Shown in pieces: positions 5,607 to 56,815 of a stretch of 57,064 nucleotides of DNA. Position numbers and translations under genes: made by a program. The stretch is from Minisyncoccota bacterium (GTDB taxonomy: Bacteria; Patescibacteriota; Minisyncoccia; Phycocordibacterales; GWA1-40-21): assembly GCA_036171775.1 (NCBI GenBank), contig JAVHRR010000003.1, positions 1 through 57,064 of the forward strand, read 5' to 3'. The notes under the pieces were generated by a model that saw only the letters and a list, made by a program, of their open reading frames with translations, ran no database searches and was not told the DNA's origin. Numbering within the stretch: the stretch's first letter is position 1; each line of letters begins with the position of its first letter.

Positions 5607-6041
5607 TCAAATCTCTATTTCTCTCTCATTTTCGCCAATAAACTTGAAAAATATTTTTGCGTGATTTTTTGGCAATACTTCTATAACCCTTTCTGGCCAT
5701 TCTATAAAAATAATATTTCTTGGATCAACTAAAACTCTTTCCCATTCTATAGCTAAAAGTTCTTTTCCTGAATCTAAACGGTACGCATCTATATGTATAA
5801 GTTTTTTAAAATCTTTATGTTCTATATCGTATATCTTTTCGACAACATAAGTCGGACTAGTAACGTCCTCTTTAATATTAAATATTTTTGCTATGGCTTG
5901 TGTAAATGTTGTTTTTCCTGAACCAAGATCGCCGTAAAGCCCAACGACTAGAGCTGTATTAAAAATGCCCATTGATATCTTTTCGATAAAATCTTTTGCT
6001 ATCTTTTCTGTATCAGAAATACTTTTACTTACCACTTTCAT
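5607..6041 (-). CDS. tsaE: tRNA t6A37 biosynthesis ATPase TsaE
   Basis: P-loop GDLGSGKTTF with YVVEKIY and HIDAYRL motifs. The track start (6059, TTG) lies in a repeat, so the ATG at 6041 (MKVVSKS) is preferred. That ATG is itself the outer tip of the repeat. Confidence 0.85.
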   Translation of the reverse strand: MKVVSKSISDTEKIAKDFIEKISMGIFNTALVVGLYGDLGSGKTTFTQAIAKIFNIKEDVTSPTYVVEKIYDIEHKDFKKLIHIDAYRLDSGKELLAIEWERVLVDPRNIIFIEWPERVIEVLPKNHAKIFFKFIGENEREIEI

Positions 6042-6253
6042 CCGGTAGTGAAATTTCAAATTGTTTTTTTACCCTGTAGTAGAAAATGACATCGTTTTCA
6101 ACGCGCTGTTGCGCAATGTCATTTTTCACTACGGGGTTTATTACTAACAACTAAAAATTTAAATTAAAACTATTGATAAACAGACGACCTTATTTTAAAC
6201 CCATAGATAATAAAAACGAAAGTAATAATTTGAAATTCTACTACGGGATTCAT
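6037..6253. mobile_element. nested ORF-less inverted-repeat units (GTAG-core family)
   Basis: The outer pair is ttcatccggtagtgaaatttcaa (6037-6059) and ttgaaattctactacgggattcat (6230-6253). The inner pair is accctgtagtagaaaatgacat (6071-6092) and atgtcatttttcactacggggt (6116-6137). Confidence 0.7.
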
Positions 6254-6305
6254 AAGCCCATTTTATCATACTTTATGCAGGTCTCGAATGATTATTATAA
6301 ATTAA

Positions 6306-6353
6306 AAACGGCCGCATTTTTCTGCAATTTCACAGAAAAATGCAGCCGGTTTA
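6306..6353 (-). terminator. second of two tandem terminators downstream of the high-GC ORF
   Basis: Hairpin aaacggccgcatttttctg / cagaaaaatgcagccggttt, followed by a U-run on the minus strand. Confidence 0.55.
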
Positions 6354-6360
6354 ACAAAAT

Positions 6361-6392
6361 AAAAACTCCGCGAGCTTTTGGCTCGCGGAGTT
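6361..6392 (-). terminator. rho-independent terminator of the high-GC ORF
   Basis: A perfect 10-bp GC-rich stem ctccgcgagc / gctcgcggag (6366-6375 and 6381-6390), then a U5 run on the minus strand, starting 16 nt after the stop codon. Confidence 0.75.
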
Positions 6393-6408
6393 CAGGTTTT
6401 ACTAACCT

Positions 6409-6948
6409 TTACAACCTCCACTCGTCCTGGCTAGGACGCCGGTCTTTAAACTGGACCGTTATTTCATCCCACGTCCTCAGGATACCGGTGTGCTTCACGC
6501 GCAAACTTGCGAAGTCTGCGGCGAGGCTGACAGCCACGGTAAGGGTTGCCCCTCTGAGAATAACGATCTCATTCCCTGCCTTATCTTTGTAAGACACCCA
6601 CTTGCCGCTCGCAATACGGTGTTCGATGTTGAGATCGTGATCCGTACTGTTAGCGACTTTTATCAGGTGGGCAGGTATCATCTTTGCAGTCGGTGCCGGC
6701 GCTTCTGCCACGGGTTTAGGATCCGTAGCTTTGTGCTGAGGCGCCTTTTTGCTCGGACAGGCACACGCCGTTTCCTTGGGCGTCTGCACCGGCCCGCACT
6801 TCACAGTGTCTGACGAGACCTGCTGCGAGGCGTCCGCAACGGCTATGGATTCCTTCCCGCTTCCGGTAAAAAGAAACCATCCTATTATCAGACCGACTAA
6901 GCAACTGACCCCCAGCCACACCGCAGAAAAACCTTTTTTGTTTTCCAT
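6409..6948 (-). CDS. membrane-anchored hypothetical protein in a high-GC island
   Basis: 179 aa with an N-terminal TM (FSAVWLGVSCLVGLIIGWFLF), a Cys- and Pro/Ala-rich linker and an unrecognised C-terminal domain of about 90 aa. AGGAGG lies 7 nt upstream of the ATG. Several overlapping shadow ORFs on both strands are typical of GC-rich coding DNA. Confidence 0.7.
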   Translation of the reverse strand: MENKKGFSAVWLGVSCLVGLIIGWFLFTGSGKESIAVADASQQVSSDTVKCGPVQTPKETACACPSKKAPQHKATDPKPVAEAPAPTAKMIPAHLIKVANSTDHDLNIEHRIASGKWVSYKDKAGNEIVILRGATLTVAVSLAADFASLRVKHTGILRTWDEITVQFKDRRPSQDEWRL

Positions 6949-7083: not shown

Positions 7084-8295
7084 TTATTTTACTAATGCTT
7101 CTCCTATTGCTATCCACTCTCCTGTGGCAACACTTCTGATATATTCTGAAGCATTGATCTGTTTGTTTCTTGCAAGTTTCACTATTTTTATTGAAGCATC
7201 AGACGAAAGTAAAACTTTGTTCATTCTTGCATACTCCTCAACTTTGTTTATATCTGAACTGTCTGAAGTAATGTTGTTTAACAAATTTTCAGATACTGAC
7301 TTTTCTGTTTGAATTGCTTTGTTTGCGTCAACACAAACTTCTTTTAACACCATTTGTGATTGAATTTTTCTTTTCAAAACAATGTATGAGATTATCGCAC
7401 TCCAAGAAACAAGCATTGAAATAAATATTATTATTCCGTAATAATCATCAAAACCAGTGCTTGGAATATCACTCAAATAAATTGAGTCTAAGCTTGGACT
7501 TGTGTCTGTGTAAGCCAAAACTTGGTTTGATACTAAGGTTGGTTGTGCGTATGTATATGTTGGTTGCACATCATTAACGGGTTGGTTGTAATAGTAATAG
7601 TTTACTGGCTCAACATAACTTGGAGTAGGGTTCGATTGATAATAATAAGGTTGTGAATTGGTATAGTTTGTACCCGCTACATAATTACTTGCTGGTGCTA
7701 CATAAGCGCTTGGTCTGTAATATGCTGAAGAATAATTATAATTTGGTTGGTAATAAGAACCAGAAGATTGATAGTGACTTCCTTGAGATGGTGCGTAACT
7801 ATTTTGATATGTATAATTTGAACCGTAATTTAAACCTCTGTCATAAACAAAACTGTTGCTCAAACCTGAATCATACACAACTCCATTGTTCATACCTGAA
7901 TCATAAACAAATCCATTACTCATACCAGAATCAAACGCAAAACCGTTACTCAAACCTGGATCAAATGTTGTGTTGTTGCTCATTCCTGAATCATACACAA
8001 AACCATTACCCATTCCTGTATCAAATGTTGCTGAGCCACCCATACCAAAATCATATACTGTTTGGTCACTTAAACCAGAATCATACACTGGATAAGTTAA
8101 ACCCTGGTCAAATACAACGTTGTCATATAAACCTGAATCAAACTGAGCTGATGCAATCATTGGCACTGACAAAACAAGGGTTGCCATGAACAAAACAGCT
8201 AGTTTTGTTGGTGTGTATTTAATTGTATTTATAATGTTTTCCATAAATTTTGATTTTGTTTTATTGACCATAAAATACTGATAATACGTGGTCAT
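7084..8295 (-). CDS. secreted/anchored repeat protein (11 x [FY]DxG[LM] decapeptides, a Y/N/Q/S-rich tract, a TM and a C-terminal domain)
   Basis: A signal-like segment (LAVLFMATLVLSVPMIASA) is followed by tandem 10-aa repeats, a low-complexity region, a TM (IIIFISMLVSWSAIISYIVL) and a tail of about 85 aa. The true start may be an internal Met (8271 or 8244). Confidence 0.65.
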   Translation of the reverse strand: MTTYYQYFMVNKTKSKFMENIINTIKYTPTKLAVLFMATLVLSVPMIASAQFDSGLYDNVVFDQGLTYPVYDSGLSDQTVYDFGMGGSATFDTGMGNGFVYDSGMSNNTTFDPGLSNGFAFDSGMSNGFVYDSGMNNGVVYDSGLSNSFVYDRGLNYGSNYTYQNSYAPSQGSHYQSSGSYYQPNYNYSSAYYRPSAYVAPASNYVAGTNYTNSQPYYYQSNPTPSYVEPVNYYYYNQPVNDVQPTYTYAQPTLVSNQVLAYTDTSPSLDSIYLSDIPSTGFDDYYGIIIFISMLVSWSAIISYIVLKRKIQSQMVLKEVCVDANKAIQTEKSVSENLLNNITSDSSDINKVEEYARMNKVLLSSDASIKIVKLARNKQINASEYIRSVATGEWIAIGEALVK

Positions 8296-8394: not shown

Positions 8395-8532
8395 TTCATC
8401 CGGTAGTGAAAAATGACATCGCTCTTCCGAGCTGGATATTTAAACTATGAAATATATTGTAAATAAGATCATTTTTAATAATTAATATGATCGATAAATT
8501 TGCTTAATGTTATTTTCTACTACGGGATTCAT
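8395..8532. mobile_element. ORF-less GTAG-core inverted-repeat unit
   Basis: Termini are ttcatccggtagtgaaaaatgacat (left) and tattttctactacgggattcat (right). Confidence 0.65.
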
Positions 8533-8675
8533 CGGGTAGTGAAATTTCAAGTTGTTTTTATGTTGACCATAGTACAACTTTGAAAATGTCGACCTGTGTT
8601 ACAAAAACGTCTTTGGTTACATCTACATTTTTTTAAAAACAAGTCAATGACTTGAAATTCTACTACCCGATTCAT
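8529..8675. mobile_element. ORF-less GTAG-core inverted-repeat unit, tandem to the previous one
   Basis: Termini are tcatcgggtagtgaaatttcaa (left) and ttgaaattctactacccgattcat (right). It shares the tetranucleotide tcat with the preceding unit. Confidence 0.65.
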
Positions 8676-30360: not shown

Positions 30361-33249
30361 TTATTTGCTGTCTTCTTTCATTTGCTTAGCCACCTTTTTT
30401 GCTAATTCATCGGCAGCTTTTTCTTCCTTGGCTTTATCCTTGTCTGATTGGCTTGTACCCATTTCGGCAGCCCGTGCAATCTCGGCGTTTTCTGGTGTAA
30501 AGTTAGCACTAAGGAATTTATTTCTTATATATTTAGCATAGTTCGCTTTGGTATTCTTGCTTTCTTGAATTGTTTCTATTGTTGAACTAGATAATCCCCC
30601 CCTTAGGTTTGGTCTAACATAACCAAAAGTTGCTTTGTTTACCGCTCCAGATATTCCACCTCCAACAAAATCAGCCATCTTATCAAGTCCTTCCAAAGCA
30701 AAATTTTTCTTACTTAAATCATCTTTTATTTTACTAAGTTTATTGTCTAATTCTTTTATATCATTATTTATTTCAGCTGCTTTTGTCTGTTCTTCAGTTT
30801 TTGTTTTTATGTCGTCATCTAATTTTGCAGATTCTTTTCTGGCGATAACAAGTTCTTTTTCAATTTTATCTTTTTCAAATGTTGTTAGTGCCTTTTGCTT
30901 ATCAGCTTCAAGTTTTTGTTGCAGAGCTATATTTGCCAATTTATCAGCTTCAAGTTTTTTCTTCTCATTGTCGAGCTTCTGCATATTTTTATCAGATTCC
31001 TTGAAATTTTCTCCAGTGCCAGCAGCCTGAAGTTTCTTCATTGCCTCTTTTGGATTGTTTTGAAGAGTTTGTCTTTGTGATTTAATTGCATCCAATTTCT
31101 TTGACAAAGTTTTGGCTTCGGTGACCTCACCATTTCTTGTTGCATCCTCAATTTGCTTTTCTAATTTTATTTCTTCTTGTTTAAATCTTTCCACTATTTC
31201 TCTATCAACAACTCTCTTTTCATAATCACCCGCCGCACCTTCAAAAGCCTCAGCTTGTTTAACAGCATCTTTTTTCTGCTTATCCATCAAGCCAGAGAAC
31301 CCTGTTTGTCCTTTCCCGTATTCTCCACTCGCTTTCAAGTAACTCTTGTCTATGATACCACCACCAATACCGCTAATTGTTCCTGCCTGTCCGAGCACCT
31401 CTTTCAAAGCGGTTGTATTTCTCATATCAAATGTGCCAGTCGATGCGCTCTTTAGTGTTCCAAGTGTTGCTTTTGCTATATTGCCGCCGATAAAGCTTCC
31501 TGAAGCAGCAGCGTTGCTGAGCCTTTGTCCATATTTGCTGTTTGCGAGTGCGTTTGCTCCTCTTCCTGCTACCTGTCTTGCAACAAGAGCTGTTCCTCCA
31601 GTAGCCGCGCCAAGAGCTAGACCTGTTCCTACCTGCGCTATTTTGTCTACAAAGTTGCCCATAGGACCACTCAAACTCTTTGTTAGACTGACTGATTTTA
31701 GAAGAAGATAAACAACAAGGAAGAAATTAAAGAATACCATCATAGGACCAGTCGATGCTTGCTTAGCAAGAATTTGAGAAAGTCGGATAGTTAACAACAT
31801 AAAAAACATAATAGCTGGAGCAATCAAAACTTGATCCTGAAGGCTTTTACGCCAAGCTGTAGAAAATGTACCGATTCCAGGAATAACTTCACCAACAAAA
31901 CCAATAGGAGAAGTGGCCATAAGCACCACCAACATCACAAACCTACCTATAAGAAGTGCAGAAAGGGCGAAAAATACAAAAGTGGTTATTAAAAACAAAA
32001 CCAACCTAGTAAATGCGTTTAATAAGCCAGAGACACCAACAATACTTGCTGCTGAAGTGGCGGTGTTGTTGTTTTTAGTACTATCATAAATAGTTGTAAG
32101 ATTTAAACCATCCATAATCATTCCGCTCAAATCAATATTTGTGATTGCCCCAGAAGAACCTCCAACGGCTTTTAATAAGCCTTGTGTTTTAGAAGTAGAT
32201 TCGTCAGTTACCGTTTGTATCTGATTGTATATTGAAGTTGCTACAAGATTGCTAGCGTCTATGACAACTCTAGTTATAAAAAAACTAAAATTAATTAGAA
32301 CAGCAGAAATAATTATGGACATCAAAATCTTTTGTGCCGCCACCCCAGTAACTATCTGCTTAATGGCAGCATATAGAAGTATGAAAATAAATGTAATGTT
32401 TGCTGTGTCTCTAAGTAAAACCCAAACGGTTTGAATAGAACCATTTAAATCTTTAGTAAAGCCAGTACCAAAAATAGTGAACTGCACAGAAAAATCCAAA
32501 ATACTACCCGCAACAGCCAAAAGAAATGAGGCGATTGGTATTGTAATGAACTCGAGAACGAAGGCTATAACACCGCCAGCTTGGTCAGCAGCAAATTGTG
32601 CAATCGAACCCACAGTACCAGCCAAACCTCCCCAAATAATATCCCACACAGTTGTTTGATTAACCTTTTCTCTTCCAATGGATGCATTGTATTCTTGAAG
32701 AGCGGTGTCATACTGGACGGCCAAAGCAGCAATATTTGCAGGCATACCCATTGAGGTAACTTCAGCTTGTGTATAGTTTGGAATATCTGTAGCAATATTA
32801 CCATGCTGATATTGCTTGTTATTTTCTGTTCCTGGCATAAATGCGTTATTATACCAAAGACCATCACCTTTATAGGTAAAATCACCCGTGCTTATCGTCC
32901 CAGTTAAATCTTCTTTGTATTTAACTGACCAAGTGGGTGGAATCGGTGCTTTTGACGCTTGAGATATTGAACATTGGCGAGTTAAAGAGGTCAAAGGAAC
33001 AACAGTACATCCAGCAGGTACTGTAGACAATACAGCACAGTTTGCGAAGCTTGAGCCACCCGGACTAGTGTTACATGTCGTACTCCAACTTGCGCAACCG
33101 CACGATGCAGCTTGAACGACAGAGATATTAAAGGAGAAAAAACCAACCAATATAATTATGGTAGATAAAATAAATGCAACAGATTTTTTTGTAAAAAATC
33201 TTTTCGTCCTGTAGTGAAATTTTGACTTGTTAAATTTTTTGTTTTCCAT
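30361..33249 (-). CDS. VirB6/TrbL-like polytopic membrane protein with a Cys-rich ectodomain and a long K/E-rich coiled-coil tail
   Basis: 962 aa with an N-terminal anchor, a Cys-rich segment (ASCGCASWSTTCNT...), at least 6 TM helices in residues ~215-540, a Gly/Ala-rich tract and a charged tail of about 330 aa. The first 15 codons lie inside the GIY-YIG element. Confidence 0.6.
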   Translation of the reverse strand: MENKKFNKSKFHYRTKRFFTKKSVAFILSTIIILVGFFSFNISVVQAASCGCASWSTTCNTSPGGSSFANCAVLSTVPAGCTVVPLTSLTRQCSISQASKAPIPPTWSVKYKEDLTGTISTGDFTYKGDGLWYNNAFMPGTENNKQYQHGNIATDIPNYTQAEVTSMGMPANIAALAVQYDTALQEYNASIGREKVNQTTVWDIIWGGLAGTVGSIAQFAADQAGGVIAFVLEFITIPIASFLLAVAGSILDFSVQFTIFGTGFTKDLNGSIQTVWVLLRDTANITFIFILLYAAIKQIVTGVAAQKILMSIIISAVLINFSFFITRVVIDASNLVATSIYNQIQTVTDESTSKTQGLLKAVGGSSGAITNIDLSGMIMDGLNLTTIYDSTKNNNTATSAASIVGVSGLLNAFTRLVLFLITTFVFFALSALLIGRFVMLVVLMATSPIGFVGEVIPGIGTFSTAWRKSLQDQVLIAPAIMFFMLLTIRLSQILAKQASTGPMMVFFNFFLVVYLLLKSVSLTKSLSGPMGNFVDKIAQVGTGLALGAATGGTALVARQVAGRGANALANSKYGQRLSNAAASGSFIGGNIAKATLGTLKSASTGTFDMRNTTALKEVLGQAGTISGIGGGIIDKSYLKASGEYGKGQTGFSGLMDKQKKDAVKQAEAFEGAAGDYEKRVVDREIVERFKQEEIKLEKQIEDATRNGEVTEAKTLSKKLDAIKSQRQTLQNNPKEAMKKLQAAGTGENFKESDKNMQKLDNEKKKLEADKLANIALQQKLEADKQKALTTFEKDKIEKELVIARKESAKLDDDIKTKTEEQTKAAEINNDIKELDNKLSKIKDDLSKKNFALEGLDKMADFVGGGISGAVNKATFGYVRPNLRGGLSSSTIETIQESKNTKANYAKYIRNKFLSANFTPENAEIARAAEMGTSQSDKDKAKEEKAADELAKKVAKQMKEDSK

Positions 33250-33527
33250 ATAGATAACACCGCAACCTCCTCTTTAACAATCTACCTCCCTATGTTGTTT
33301 TTAAATATCGCTCGCGTCTTACAGCGTCTTCTTTATTTAAGCAACTTTCGTAATATATTATTTTCCAAGGTTTGTACCGTTTTGTGGAAAAATTTAAACC
33401 AAGATTATGTTCTTTAAAGCGTTTTTTGAGATCTGACGTAAAACCTGTGTACAACTCATTATTCTTCACACTTTGTAATATATAGTTGTAGAACATAATC
33501 GAGTCAAAATTCTACTACGGGATTCAT
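33203..33527 (-). mobile_element. GTAG-core inverted-repeat unit carrying a GIY-YIG nuclease ORF
   Basis: Termini are ttcgtcctgtagtgaaattttgactt (33203-33228) and agtcaaaattctactacgggattcat (33502-33527). The interior is filled almost entirely by the GIY-YIG reading frame. Confidence 0.7.
33230..33496 (-). pseudogene. GIY-YIG nuclease family (COG2827/UPF0213-like) ORF with an in-frame TAG
   Basis: The 68-aa ORF contains FYNYIL, LYTGFTSDLKKRFKEHN and RRERYLKTT. After the TAG at 33290-33292 the same frame continues as GGRLLKRRLRCYLYGKQKI to a TAA at 33230-33232. That restores the usual family length of about 88 aa and the YLKTxxGxxxLKxRL tail. Confidence 0.7.
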
Positions 33528-49036: not shown

Positions 49037-49156
49037 CGTCTTTGCGAGCGAAGTGTTGAAAAGCGAATACGTGTAGCTTTTCAAAGACGGAGGCTGGCAA
49101 GCCGAGTCGGGATCGCATAAATTTTCAGTAGAAAATTATATGTGATGCAACCCAGG
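49037..49156 (+). repeat. composite repeat: a family G unit (GTCTTTGCGAG ... GCAAYCCAGG) interrupted by a family F core
   Basis: cgtctttgcgagcgaag, an insert of about 90 nt containing gagtcgggatcgcataaattttcagtagaaaattatatgtga, then gcaacccagg. The uninterrupted G unit is seen at 55142-55172. Confidence 0.5.
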
Positions 49157-56686: not shown

Positions 56687-56815
56687 GTATTTATTTCGGG
56701 TCACATATAATTTTCTACTGAAAATTTACGCCGACCCCGACTCCTCCACCTTCGTTCTGTCCGTCTTTGAAGTCGGGCACTTAATCCCGATTTCAACTTA
56801 TCCCGAAATAAATAC
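56687..56815 (-). repeat. family F element enclosed by a perfect 14-bp stem
   Basis: gtatttatttcggg (56687-56700) pairs with cccgaaataaatac (56802-56815). The interior reverse complement aligns with 49010-49145 at gtcgaMtttccct, ttcaaagacgga and gagtcgggNtcg..ataaattttcagtagaaaattatatgtga. Confidence 0.55.

Follow-up and report, generated by a model that had tools for sequence, protein, structure and literature searches.

Nested gene-less units on the tsaE start codon of a Minisyncoccota bacterium: a very small, probably mobile family that shares its ends with GIY-YIG nuclease elements

Introduction

Small GIY-YIG nucleases of the Ssn type cut single-stranded DNA beside cognate hairpin repeats, the NTS or Ssn-related motifs (Chenal et al., 2025, Nat Commun; PMC11893778). 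The authors of that study remark on the insertion sequence (IS)-like architecture of these loci and on their parallel with the REP elements (repetitive extragenic palindromes) and their RAYT transposases, and put forward mobility only as a hypothesis (PMC11893778). Here we describe a family of very short hairpin-forming elements, two of which lie one inside the other at the start codon of tsaE in a 57,064-nucleotide stretch of DNA from a Minisyncoccota bacterium (GenBank assembly GCA_036171775.1, contig JAVHRR010000003.1, positions 1 to 57,064 of the forward strand; hereafter the window). Ssn/NTS is the closest published system that we found. It resembles the family described here in two respects: cognate inverted repeats that can form hairpins flank a small single-domain GIY-YIG protein, and many repeat copies that contain no open reading frame (ORF) are dispersed in the genome. 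By contrast, each NTS is itself palindromic, while here the two ends pair across the whole unit, and the published account reports no target duplication, start-codon seat, rebuilt ATG or end-to-end pairing, and no nested, tandem or other derivatives resembling miniature inverted-repeat transposable elements (MITEs) (PMC11893778).

Four further systems invite comparison. REP/REPIN-RAYT systems share the short amplified hairpin doublets, the single small nuclease-type gene between the same repeats and the GTAG core, and they differ in the fold of the enzyme; the present family, in addition, makes a 4-bp duplication and carries GTAG inside the stem. The Correia elements of Neisseria (NEMIS/CREE) are 100-160 bp long, with inverted-repeat ends and a short duplication, and are gene-adjacent and co-transcribed, forming hairpins in mRNA. 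The likeness extends to size, ends, nested and tandem copies and mRNA hairpins, but the Correia target duplication is TA and no autonomous partner of these elements is known, whereas the units described here have a start-codon seat, a rebuilt ATG and a GIY-YIG partner. Transposition in the IS200/IS605 family follows a 'peel and paste' route on single strands. Ends that fold as single strands and include irregular pairs, as proposed below, and insertion beside a short specific word are common to both systems, but IS200/IS605 elements use a Y1 transposase, their hairpins are subterminal, and they lack both inverted-repeat ends and a duplication, while here there are such ends and a duplication and no Y1 gene between the ends. 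Finally, in Penelope-like retroelements a GIY-YIG nuclease opens the target and short duplications are left, as in the system proposed here; those elements are eukaryotic, far larger and dependent on a reverse transcriptase, which is absent here. We found no description of elements of the present kind in the literature on prokaryotic GIY-YIG mobile elements or on leaderless genes of Patescibacteria.

In our judgement it is probable, if by no means certain, that the two units at tsaE are nested gene-less copies of a single very small mobile family and that a GIY-YIG nuclease mobilises such copies in trans.

Results

The essential gene tsaE lies intact on the minus strand at 5607-6041 (144 codons), with a start codon that was restored by the insertion. 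In whole-window coordinates an outer ORF-less element of type 1 occupies 6041-6248 (minus strand; extension TTTCAAATTG; 208 bp with its insert), with inverted-repeat ends and TTCA on both sides. The left TTCA, at 6037-6040, is TGAA on the gene strand and represents tsaE nucleotides 2-5; the right one, at 6249-6252, forms together with T6253 the displaced original ATGAA of tsaE. The left outer arm begins at 6041 as T CCGGTAGTGAAATTTCAAATTG and the right arm stops at 6248 as TAATTTGAAATTCTACTACGGG A. Within this element lies an inner hairpin element of 65 bp (6072-6136) with type 2 arms (CCCTGTAGTAGAAAATGACATCG and CAATGTCATTTTTCACTACGGGG; extension AAAATGACAT) and a short loop, flanked by TTTA at 6068-6071 and again at 6137-6140. 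Subtraction of the inner unit and of one copy of its duplication leaves an outer unit of about 139 bp. On the plus strand the composite begins ...ccacT TTCA ^ T CCGGTAGTGAAATTTCAAATTGTTTT TTTA ^ C CCTGTAGTAGAAAATGACATCG...CAATGTCATTTTTCACTACGGG G ^ TTTA ttactaac and ends ... TAATTTGAAATTCTACTACGGG A ^ TTCA ^ T aagccc, where carets mark the junctions. The ATG of tsaE (6039-6041, minus strand) is therefore composed of the terminal base of the element, the A at 6041, and the CA of the flanking TTCA (6037-6040).

A first-pass annotation of the window had already recognized two nested hairpin-forming units with a common core, each with its own complementary extension, and the overlap of the outer unit with the tsaE start codon. 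Re-reading of the sequence and the folds bear out this description, including the coordinates and sequences of both units and the lack of coding capacity: the ORF list shows no frame above 41 aa inside the composite. The repeat ends reach one base beyond the core as then noted, and the 4-bp direct repeat around each unit had gone unnoted. The core CCNGTAGTRGAAA, with at most one mismatch, occurs seven times in the window against an expectation of 0.43, a count reached in 0 of 100 shuffles. Folded as single-stranded DNA, the inner unit has an energy of -19.2 kcal/mol (z -6.4), and an un-nested type-1 copy at 8528-8675 has one of -27.7 kcal/mol (z -5.9); z runs from -5.6 to -6.4 over the folds of the two units. 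Scans of the window with Rfam at gathering thresholds and for tRNA and tmRNA returned no match, which rules out a known RNA as the identity of the feature.

We surveyed 33 loci from congeners and from another family. The four flanking bases vary between copies (TTCA, TACA, CTCA, AACA, TCCA, TGCA and TTTA) and match within a copy, most copies having a perfect direct repeat; this covariation identifies a true target duplication and excludes a fixed cleavage word of the IS200/IS605 type. Orthologues of tsaE, 51-81% identical, were found in 23 of 25 congeners, and in 20 of these 23 the site is element-free and reads as a single ATGAA. The nested composite of the window recurs in one congener (G015). 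In another (G022) the outer unit is present and the inner one missing, and the unfilled inner site there reads GTTTTCATTGCC. In the tree the source genome (G000) groups with G015 (91/95), and G022 stands beside the element-free G002 (99/96), so that at least two gains or losses must have taken place at the tsaE seat. A second seat has likewise been reused: the gene starting MKEKTKKILNKKW bears a type-2 copy in the source genome and a type-1 copy in G022. We regard insertion, duplication, seat and nesting order as shown, together with the ends in common with the nuclease elements described below. The outer copy landed first, on the tsaE start, and the inner 65-bp copy inserted later at A^TAAA (or A^TGAA) within it.

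Alignment of both arms of 38 different elements reveals ends made up of T/C-CC-N-GTAGT, a two-base irregularity and an extension of 10-12 bases, the last of which differs by subfamily and is complementary between the two ends; one strand folds to a stem of about 21 bp. The terminal pair of this stem is T-A or C-G, and positions 2-9 (CC-N-GTAGT) are invariant except at position 4. Positions 10-11 hold one G.T and one A.C in 38 of 38 elements, in either polarity. At positions 13-20 there are two to five pair types each, with 113 double changes compared to 54 +/- 6.6 in shuffled data, and the paired share of the stem cells is 85.7%, whereas sliding the partner brings it to no more than 49%. Matching of the arms by itself is also compatible with inverted repeats being recognized as duplex; the irregularity, kept in all copies and on either arm, seems to be a better fit to recognition of a folded single strand.

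The source genome (759 kb, 35% GC, 50 contigs, 92% complete; the window is its contig C3) contains about 11 units of the family, as determined by strict motif patterns and nhmmer; these superseded a loose first scan with 618 mostly spurious matches, and supply the genome-wide census of the motif that the first-pass annotation had proposed. Six copies are of type 1, the outer unit included (136-142 bp between terminal bases; extension TTTCAA[A/G]TTG), two are of type 2 (129 bp; AAAATG[A/G]CAT), one is a mini of 65 bp, the inner unit at tsaE, one is a 129-bp variant on contig C29, one is a solo end on contig C4 and one is the 316-bp copy with a GIY-YIG gene (33207-33522) described below. By nhmmer the outer unit, less its insert, aligns end to end with the five other type-1 copies, whose ends are nearly identical and whose interiors are far more diverged. 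In their inverted-repeat ends, target duplication, lack of an ORF and occurrence in several copies, the units have the features of a MITE. Elsewhere in the window a tandem pair of ORF-less copies is found on the minus strand, consisting of a TTCA-flanked type-2 copy (8399-8527, 129 bp) and a type-1 copy (8532-8670, 139 bp) that shares the TTCA at 8528-8531 with its neighbour. The ATGAA occupied by the pair (8399-8670) does not open a gene; a TATAAT lies 8 nt upstream, and the next gene start, at 8295, is some 100 nt further on.

Across 41 related genomes the core gives 17 matches in the source genome and 1-7 in nine congeners, compared to 0-1 per genome for the reversed pattern. The spread of the family is patchy: 9 of 24 congeners have it, as do many families of the order. 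One genome (G261) displays 70 core matches in about 500 kb, with tandem arrays, some of three units, that have one common duplication, and with copies 97.5-100% identical to one another at different seats, each with its own duplication. These sequences indicate recent spread of the family in G261. A nested composite, in this case with type 1 inside type 2, is found there at several loci, which implies that nested units can move as one. A further genome (G207, one contig) has 55 core matches and about 27 units, of which none is 95% or more identical to another, and carries minis of 65-79 bp comparable to the inner unit at tsaE.

The typical insertion reads, on the gene strand, native A, TGNN, element, A, TGNN. 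The integration word is A^T(G/A)NN, mostly A^TGAA, and its last four bases are duplicated; the last base of the element, an A, and the duplicated TG make up the rebuilt host ATG, while the original ATG is displaced with its promoter to the far end. By manual curation, about 25 of 35 distinct sites have an ATG or GTG at the boundary that opens a long ORF without an earlier start. Among the 2846 ATGAA words of the source genome, 162 serve as the first start of an ORF of 100 codons or more and 445 are located outside ORFs of that length. Were all start and non-coding ATGAA words equivalent as targets, start seats would be expected in 27% of cases (162 vs 445; binomial p = 6e-8 for the excess). 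An excess of copies at start codons, which the first-pass annotation had raised as a question, is thus found. Other, unrelated genes that bear units include topA, ruvC, pth and a VirB6-like gene. The minis are an exception: the duplications at the inner unit and at the 65-79-bp minis of G207 read TCAA, TTGA or TTTA, and these copies are not seated on start codons. A type-1 unit in the genome G007 (locus L020, C3:73541-73678) lies 17 nt inside the VirB6-like ORF, adjoining an intact GIY-YIG element; its duplication is CAAA/TTTG, and its seat is not a start codon.

The same core ends, with the extension TTTTGAC, enclose a 316-bp element elsewhere in the window (33207-33522, minus strand), which carries the GIY-YIG gene of the family (PF01541, 63.9 bits) with a TAG at about codon 70. 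An intact orthologue of 88 aa (L020) is found at the start of the same VirB6-like gene in G007. It is a small single-domain GIY-YIG protein whose best relatives in the PDB are the UPF0213 proteins 1ZG2 and 1YWL. The nuclease gene fills the entire 316 bp in at least 10 families, and no other gene was found between these ends. The gene-bearing partners of the ORF-less units (33207-33522; L020, L041, L072-L079) thus encode the GIY-YIG nuclease and no recognized transposase, in keeping with the earlier observation that the associated ORF is a GIY-YIG nuclease and not a Y1 transposase. GIY-YIG genes are bounded by the same ends, duplication and seat in G000, G007, G036, G174, G175, G282, G084, G308 and G075, and dispersed ORF-less copies with the same core accompany the nuclease-bearing elements.

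Relatives of the nuclease (E <= 1e-12) are present in 130 of 301 sampled genomes of the order. The closest, 63-75% identical and from nine families, all have TCC[CT]GTAGT... ends, TGNN duplications and a host ATG rebuilt downstream, while in more distant relatives the ends are TCCCGTTAGAG or other TCCCGT forms. In the nuclease tree 12 of 12 genes with GTAGT ends fall outside a sister group of 16 members (89/82), and 0 of the 16 have such ends; end type follows the phylogeny of the nuclease. The source genome also holds classic NTS-flanked homologues on contigs C43, C34 and C9. These form a separate, fully supported clade in the tree, and the family protein is only 40% identical (E = 8e-14) to an NTS-flanked homologue of the source genome, with a long, fully supported branch between them. 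The Ssn-like genes concerned (C43:18053-18340, C34:3377-3661 and C9:1870-2130) have TGTCATTCCCGCGCAGGCGGGAATCCAG on their flanks, a sequence in agreement with the NTS/dRS3 consensus published for Neisseria and found here in a genome of the Patescibacteria.

A frame of seven codons, M-x-P-V-V-E-F, starts at the displaced host ATG in most GTAGT elements. Its stop falls within the end extension and is separated by 8 nt from the ATG of the nuclease, whose own stop lies 23 nt before the rebuilt host ATG. This arrangement suggests that the nuclease is expressed by capturing host signals. Two small GIY-YIG genes without GTAGT ends, the best intact ones of their genomes, were considered as candidate active nucleases and rejected: one lies directly beside the 3' end of the 16S rRNA in G261 (L121, G261:C4:7660-7896), the other between tRNA-like sequences in G207 (L122, G207:C1:299098-299325).

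Gene starts in the source genome are preceded by practically no Shine-Dalgarno words and show a peak of TAnnnT at -12 (69 of 529, background about 23), which suggests that leaderless and Shine-Dalgarno-independent initiation is widespread in the lineage. Element-free relatives have TGnTAAAAT-N6-ATG directly on tsaE, and the gene therefore looks leaderless. At the present locus the native promoter-like site is found at 6260-6287 on the minus strand (TCGAGA, 16 nt, TG-TAAAAT), beyond the composite; between the end of its TG-preceded -10 box (6265-6260) and the displaced ATG at 6253 there are 6 nt. From the position of this box the transcript is predicted to start at 6253, the element boundary, and to read into the element; the outer copy would have landed on a leaderless tsaE gene, with a transcript starting at the A of the ATG. 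In 21 of 28 sites a -10-like box of this kind is found at a distance of 5-8 nt upstream, compared to about 43% of all gene starts (p = 6e-4). Some seats in G207 have GGAG-like leaders instead, which indicates that what defines the seat is the start codon and not the start of transcription. Two strong terminator-like hairpins at 6309-6393 (minus strand), immediately upstream of the promoter of tsaE, follow a GC-rich gene (6409-6948).

The predicted leader of 244 nt folds into nested hairpins (-60.3 kcal/mol, z -4.5) that leave two unpaired stretches flanking the stem, its 5' AUGA on one side and the rebuilt AUG on the other. A compact hairpin of this kind would keep the displaced and rebuilt AUGs accessible and adjacent, so that tsaE could still be expressed. 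The insertion persists in three species, which shows that it is tolerated. An outward promoter at the left end of the element, which would keep tsaE leaderless, was rejected for want of a -10-like hexamer at the right distance, and a promoter-like match inside the element is no better than those in shuffles. Read-through from the displaced ATG into tsaE was likewise rejected, as the two ATGs are 212 nt apart and out of frame, with stops between them.

Discussion

Taken together, these results argue for a mobile family whose full-length members carry a single gene, that of a nuclease of about 88 aa related to the Ssn single-strand nucleases, which would be transcribed from a captured host promoter; the nuclease would recognize the folded ends and move gene-less copies, such as the two at tsaE, in trans. 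The link to the GIY-YIG nuclease is supported by the sequence comparisons, short of proof that this is the moving enzyme: its role as mover, its action on folded single strands and the mode of continued tsaE expression are what we infer. A broader proposal is offered more tentatively, and we regard it as somewhat doubtful. It envisages a class of self-contained DNA transposons with a GIY-YIG nuclease of about 88 residues as the sole protein, which would read the folded ends with their G.T/A.C irregularity. Integration would take place at the initial base of a start codon and restore that codon, and the element would express itself from the promoter and start signals taken over from the host; the hairpin would hold the displaced and rebuilt AUGs next to each other, and essential genes such as tsaE would thereby remain expressed.

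If the nuclease is the mover, these would be among the smallest self-contained transposons known, with a possibly new transposition chemistry; a GIY-YIG hydrolase acting on folded single strands would extend the 2025 work on Ssn from a nuclease with its repeats to a working mobile element. A start-codon seat with exact repair of the ATG would offer a safe harbour in genomes with almost no spare DNA, and bears on how ultra-small Patescibacteria start transcription and translation. For annotation, the units explain many odd hairpins at gene starts and may mislead the calling of start codons. The new elements of this study are the filled, half-filled and empty alleles at one seat, the background test of the seat, the leaderless-promoter context, the invariant irregularity of the stem and the test of RAYT genes.

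Several points weigh against assigning movement to the nuclease. GIY-YIG enzymes are hydrolytic nucleases, and we know of none with a strand-transfer (joining) activity. The 4-bp duplication suggests a staggered double-strand cut followed by repair, while the published Ssn enzymes cut only single-stranded DNA (PMC11893778). The co-occurrence of core matches with the nuclease does favour the link, with at least eight matches in 9 of 13 genomes with a close nuclease compared to 14 of 288 without one (odds ratio 44, p = 1e-8), but the genomes counted are related and not independent, and kinship inflates the figure. The excess of start seats answers only in part the objection that the seat may follow from the target word by itself, as it could partly reflect selection after insertion instead of targeting. 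G261 has near-identical copies, yet its cognate nuclease is found only in decayed form (in an assembly that is 86% complete); G207 and G052 are rich in units and have no cognate nuclease, their copies being old, with none reaching 95% identity; and the source genome's own copy of the nuclease (33207-33522) is broken. The mobility of this clade, moreover, is deduced from sequence comparisons. Old copies in genomes from which the nuclease has gone are loosely as expected of a nuclease-dependent family; the copies of G261 leave room for another mover.

The strongest competing explanation, which we consider unlikely, accepts the units as true mobile MITEs and assigns their movement to another enzyme: a transposase that went unrecognized, a host recombination or repair enzyme, or one that comes from a neighbouring cell, a phage or a plasmid. 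On this view the role of the GIY-YIG gene would be that of a passenger or of a homing-type nuclease that happens to share the ends. A 4-bp duplication combined with inverted-repeat ends is indeed the classic signature of a DDE transposase, and the unit-rich genomes without an intact cognate nuclease, together with the lack of a known joining activity, favour such an enzyme. By contrast, only the nuclease has ever been found between these ends, at full length in the families mentioned above, and end type tracks its phylogeny. Profile searches of the source genome with PF01609, PF13358 and PF00665 returned nothing, and its single IS256-like transposase, on contig C44, has unrelated ends; among the families searched (these three and PF00872) no DDE family with matching ends was found in this genome. 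Contig C44 (1407 bp) is entirely an IS256-family insertion sequence (PF00872, 338 bits; ends GGGTGTGTAAATTAAACTGTGTCAA and GAGGCTGTAAAATAAACTGTGTCAA).

It is very improbable that the units are REP/REPIN-like and mobilised by a RAYT-like Y1 transposase of the source genome. The first-pass annotation had pointed to a likeness to REP elements, and had noted that a RAYT gene elsewhere in the genome might account for the repeats; the GTAG core, the hairpin doublets and the REPIN-like size of the inner unit are in keeping with this. RAYT-like genes are in fact present: four Y1_Tnp genes of 215-239 aa (C33:30264-30923, C42:1543-2208, C14:950-1666 and C16:18992-19636) score 30-35 bits, above the Pfam cut-off, and one of them gives 43 bits with the NCBIfam model REP_Tyr_transpos, less than its curated cut-off of 80. 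There is also a weak co-occurrence, in that Y1 genes, present in 175 of 301 genomes of the order, occur in 18 of 23 unit-rich genomes compared to 157 of 278 others (p = 0.03). As an explanation of the repeats these genes fail, since each is bracketed by its own different palindrome and none by one with the CCSGTAGTRGAA core. The covarying 4-bp duplication is not a product of Y1 single-strand transposition, five unit-rich genomes (G207, G052, G282, G258 and G011) have no Y1 match, and GTAGT occupies positions 5-9 of the 21-bp stem of a unit of 65-320 bp instead of the foot of a palindrome of 20-40 nt. The likeness to REP/RAYT systems thus does not carry over to the mechanism. Examples of the RAYT palindromes are TCCCCAAGGTCCGACCTTGGGGA on C42 and GTAGGGTTCCCCTCCGTA on C16; each word has 2-11 copies in the genome.

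That the hairpins are immobile and form a conserved regulatory structure of tsaE (an attenuator or operator), as the greater conservation of the ends than of the adjacent coding sequence in three orthologous copies and the strong fold of the transcript leader might suggest, is hardly credible given that the tsaE site is empty in 20 of 23 congeners, which also disposes of a regulatory site conserved at orthologous positions, that the same units stand on unrelated genes (among them topA, ruvC, pth and the VirB6-like gene), that each unit has its own duplication and that the distribution across families is patchy.

Additional observations

The window contains another dispersed repeat, CGCATAAATTTTCAGTAGAAAATTATATGTGA, at 49125-49139 and 56707-56721, which is unrelated to the GTAGT-end family and occurs also at C35:2953 and C43:14871.

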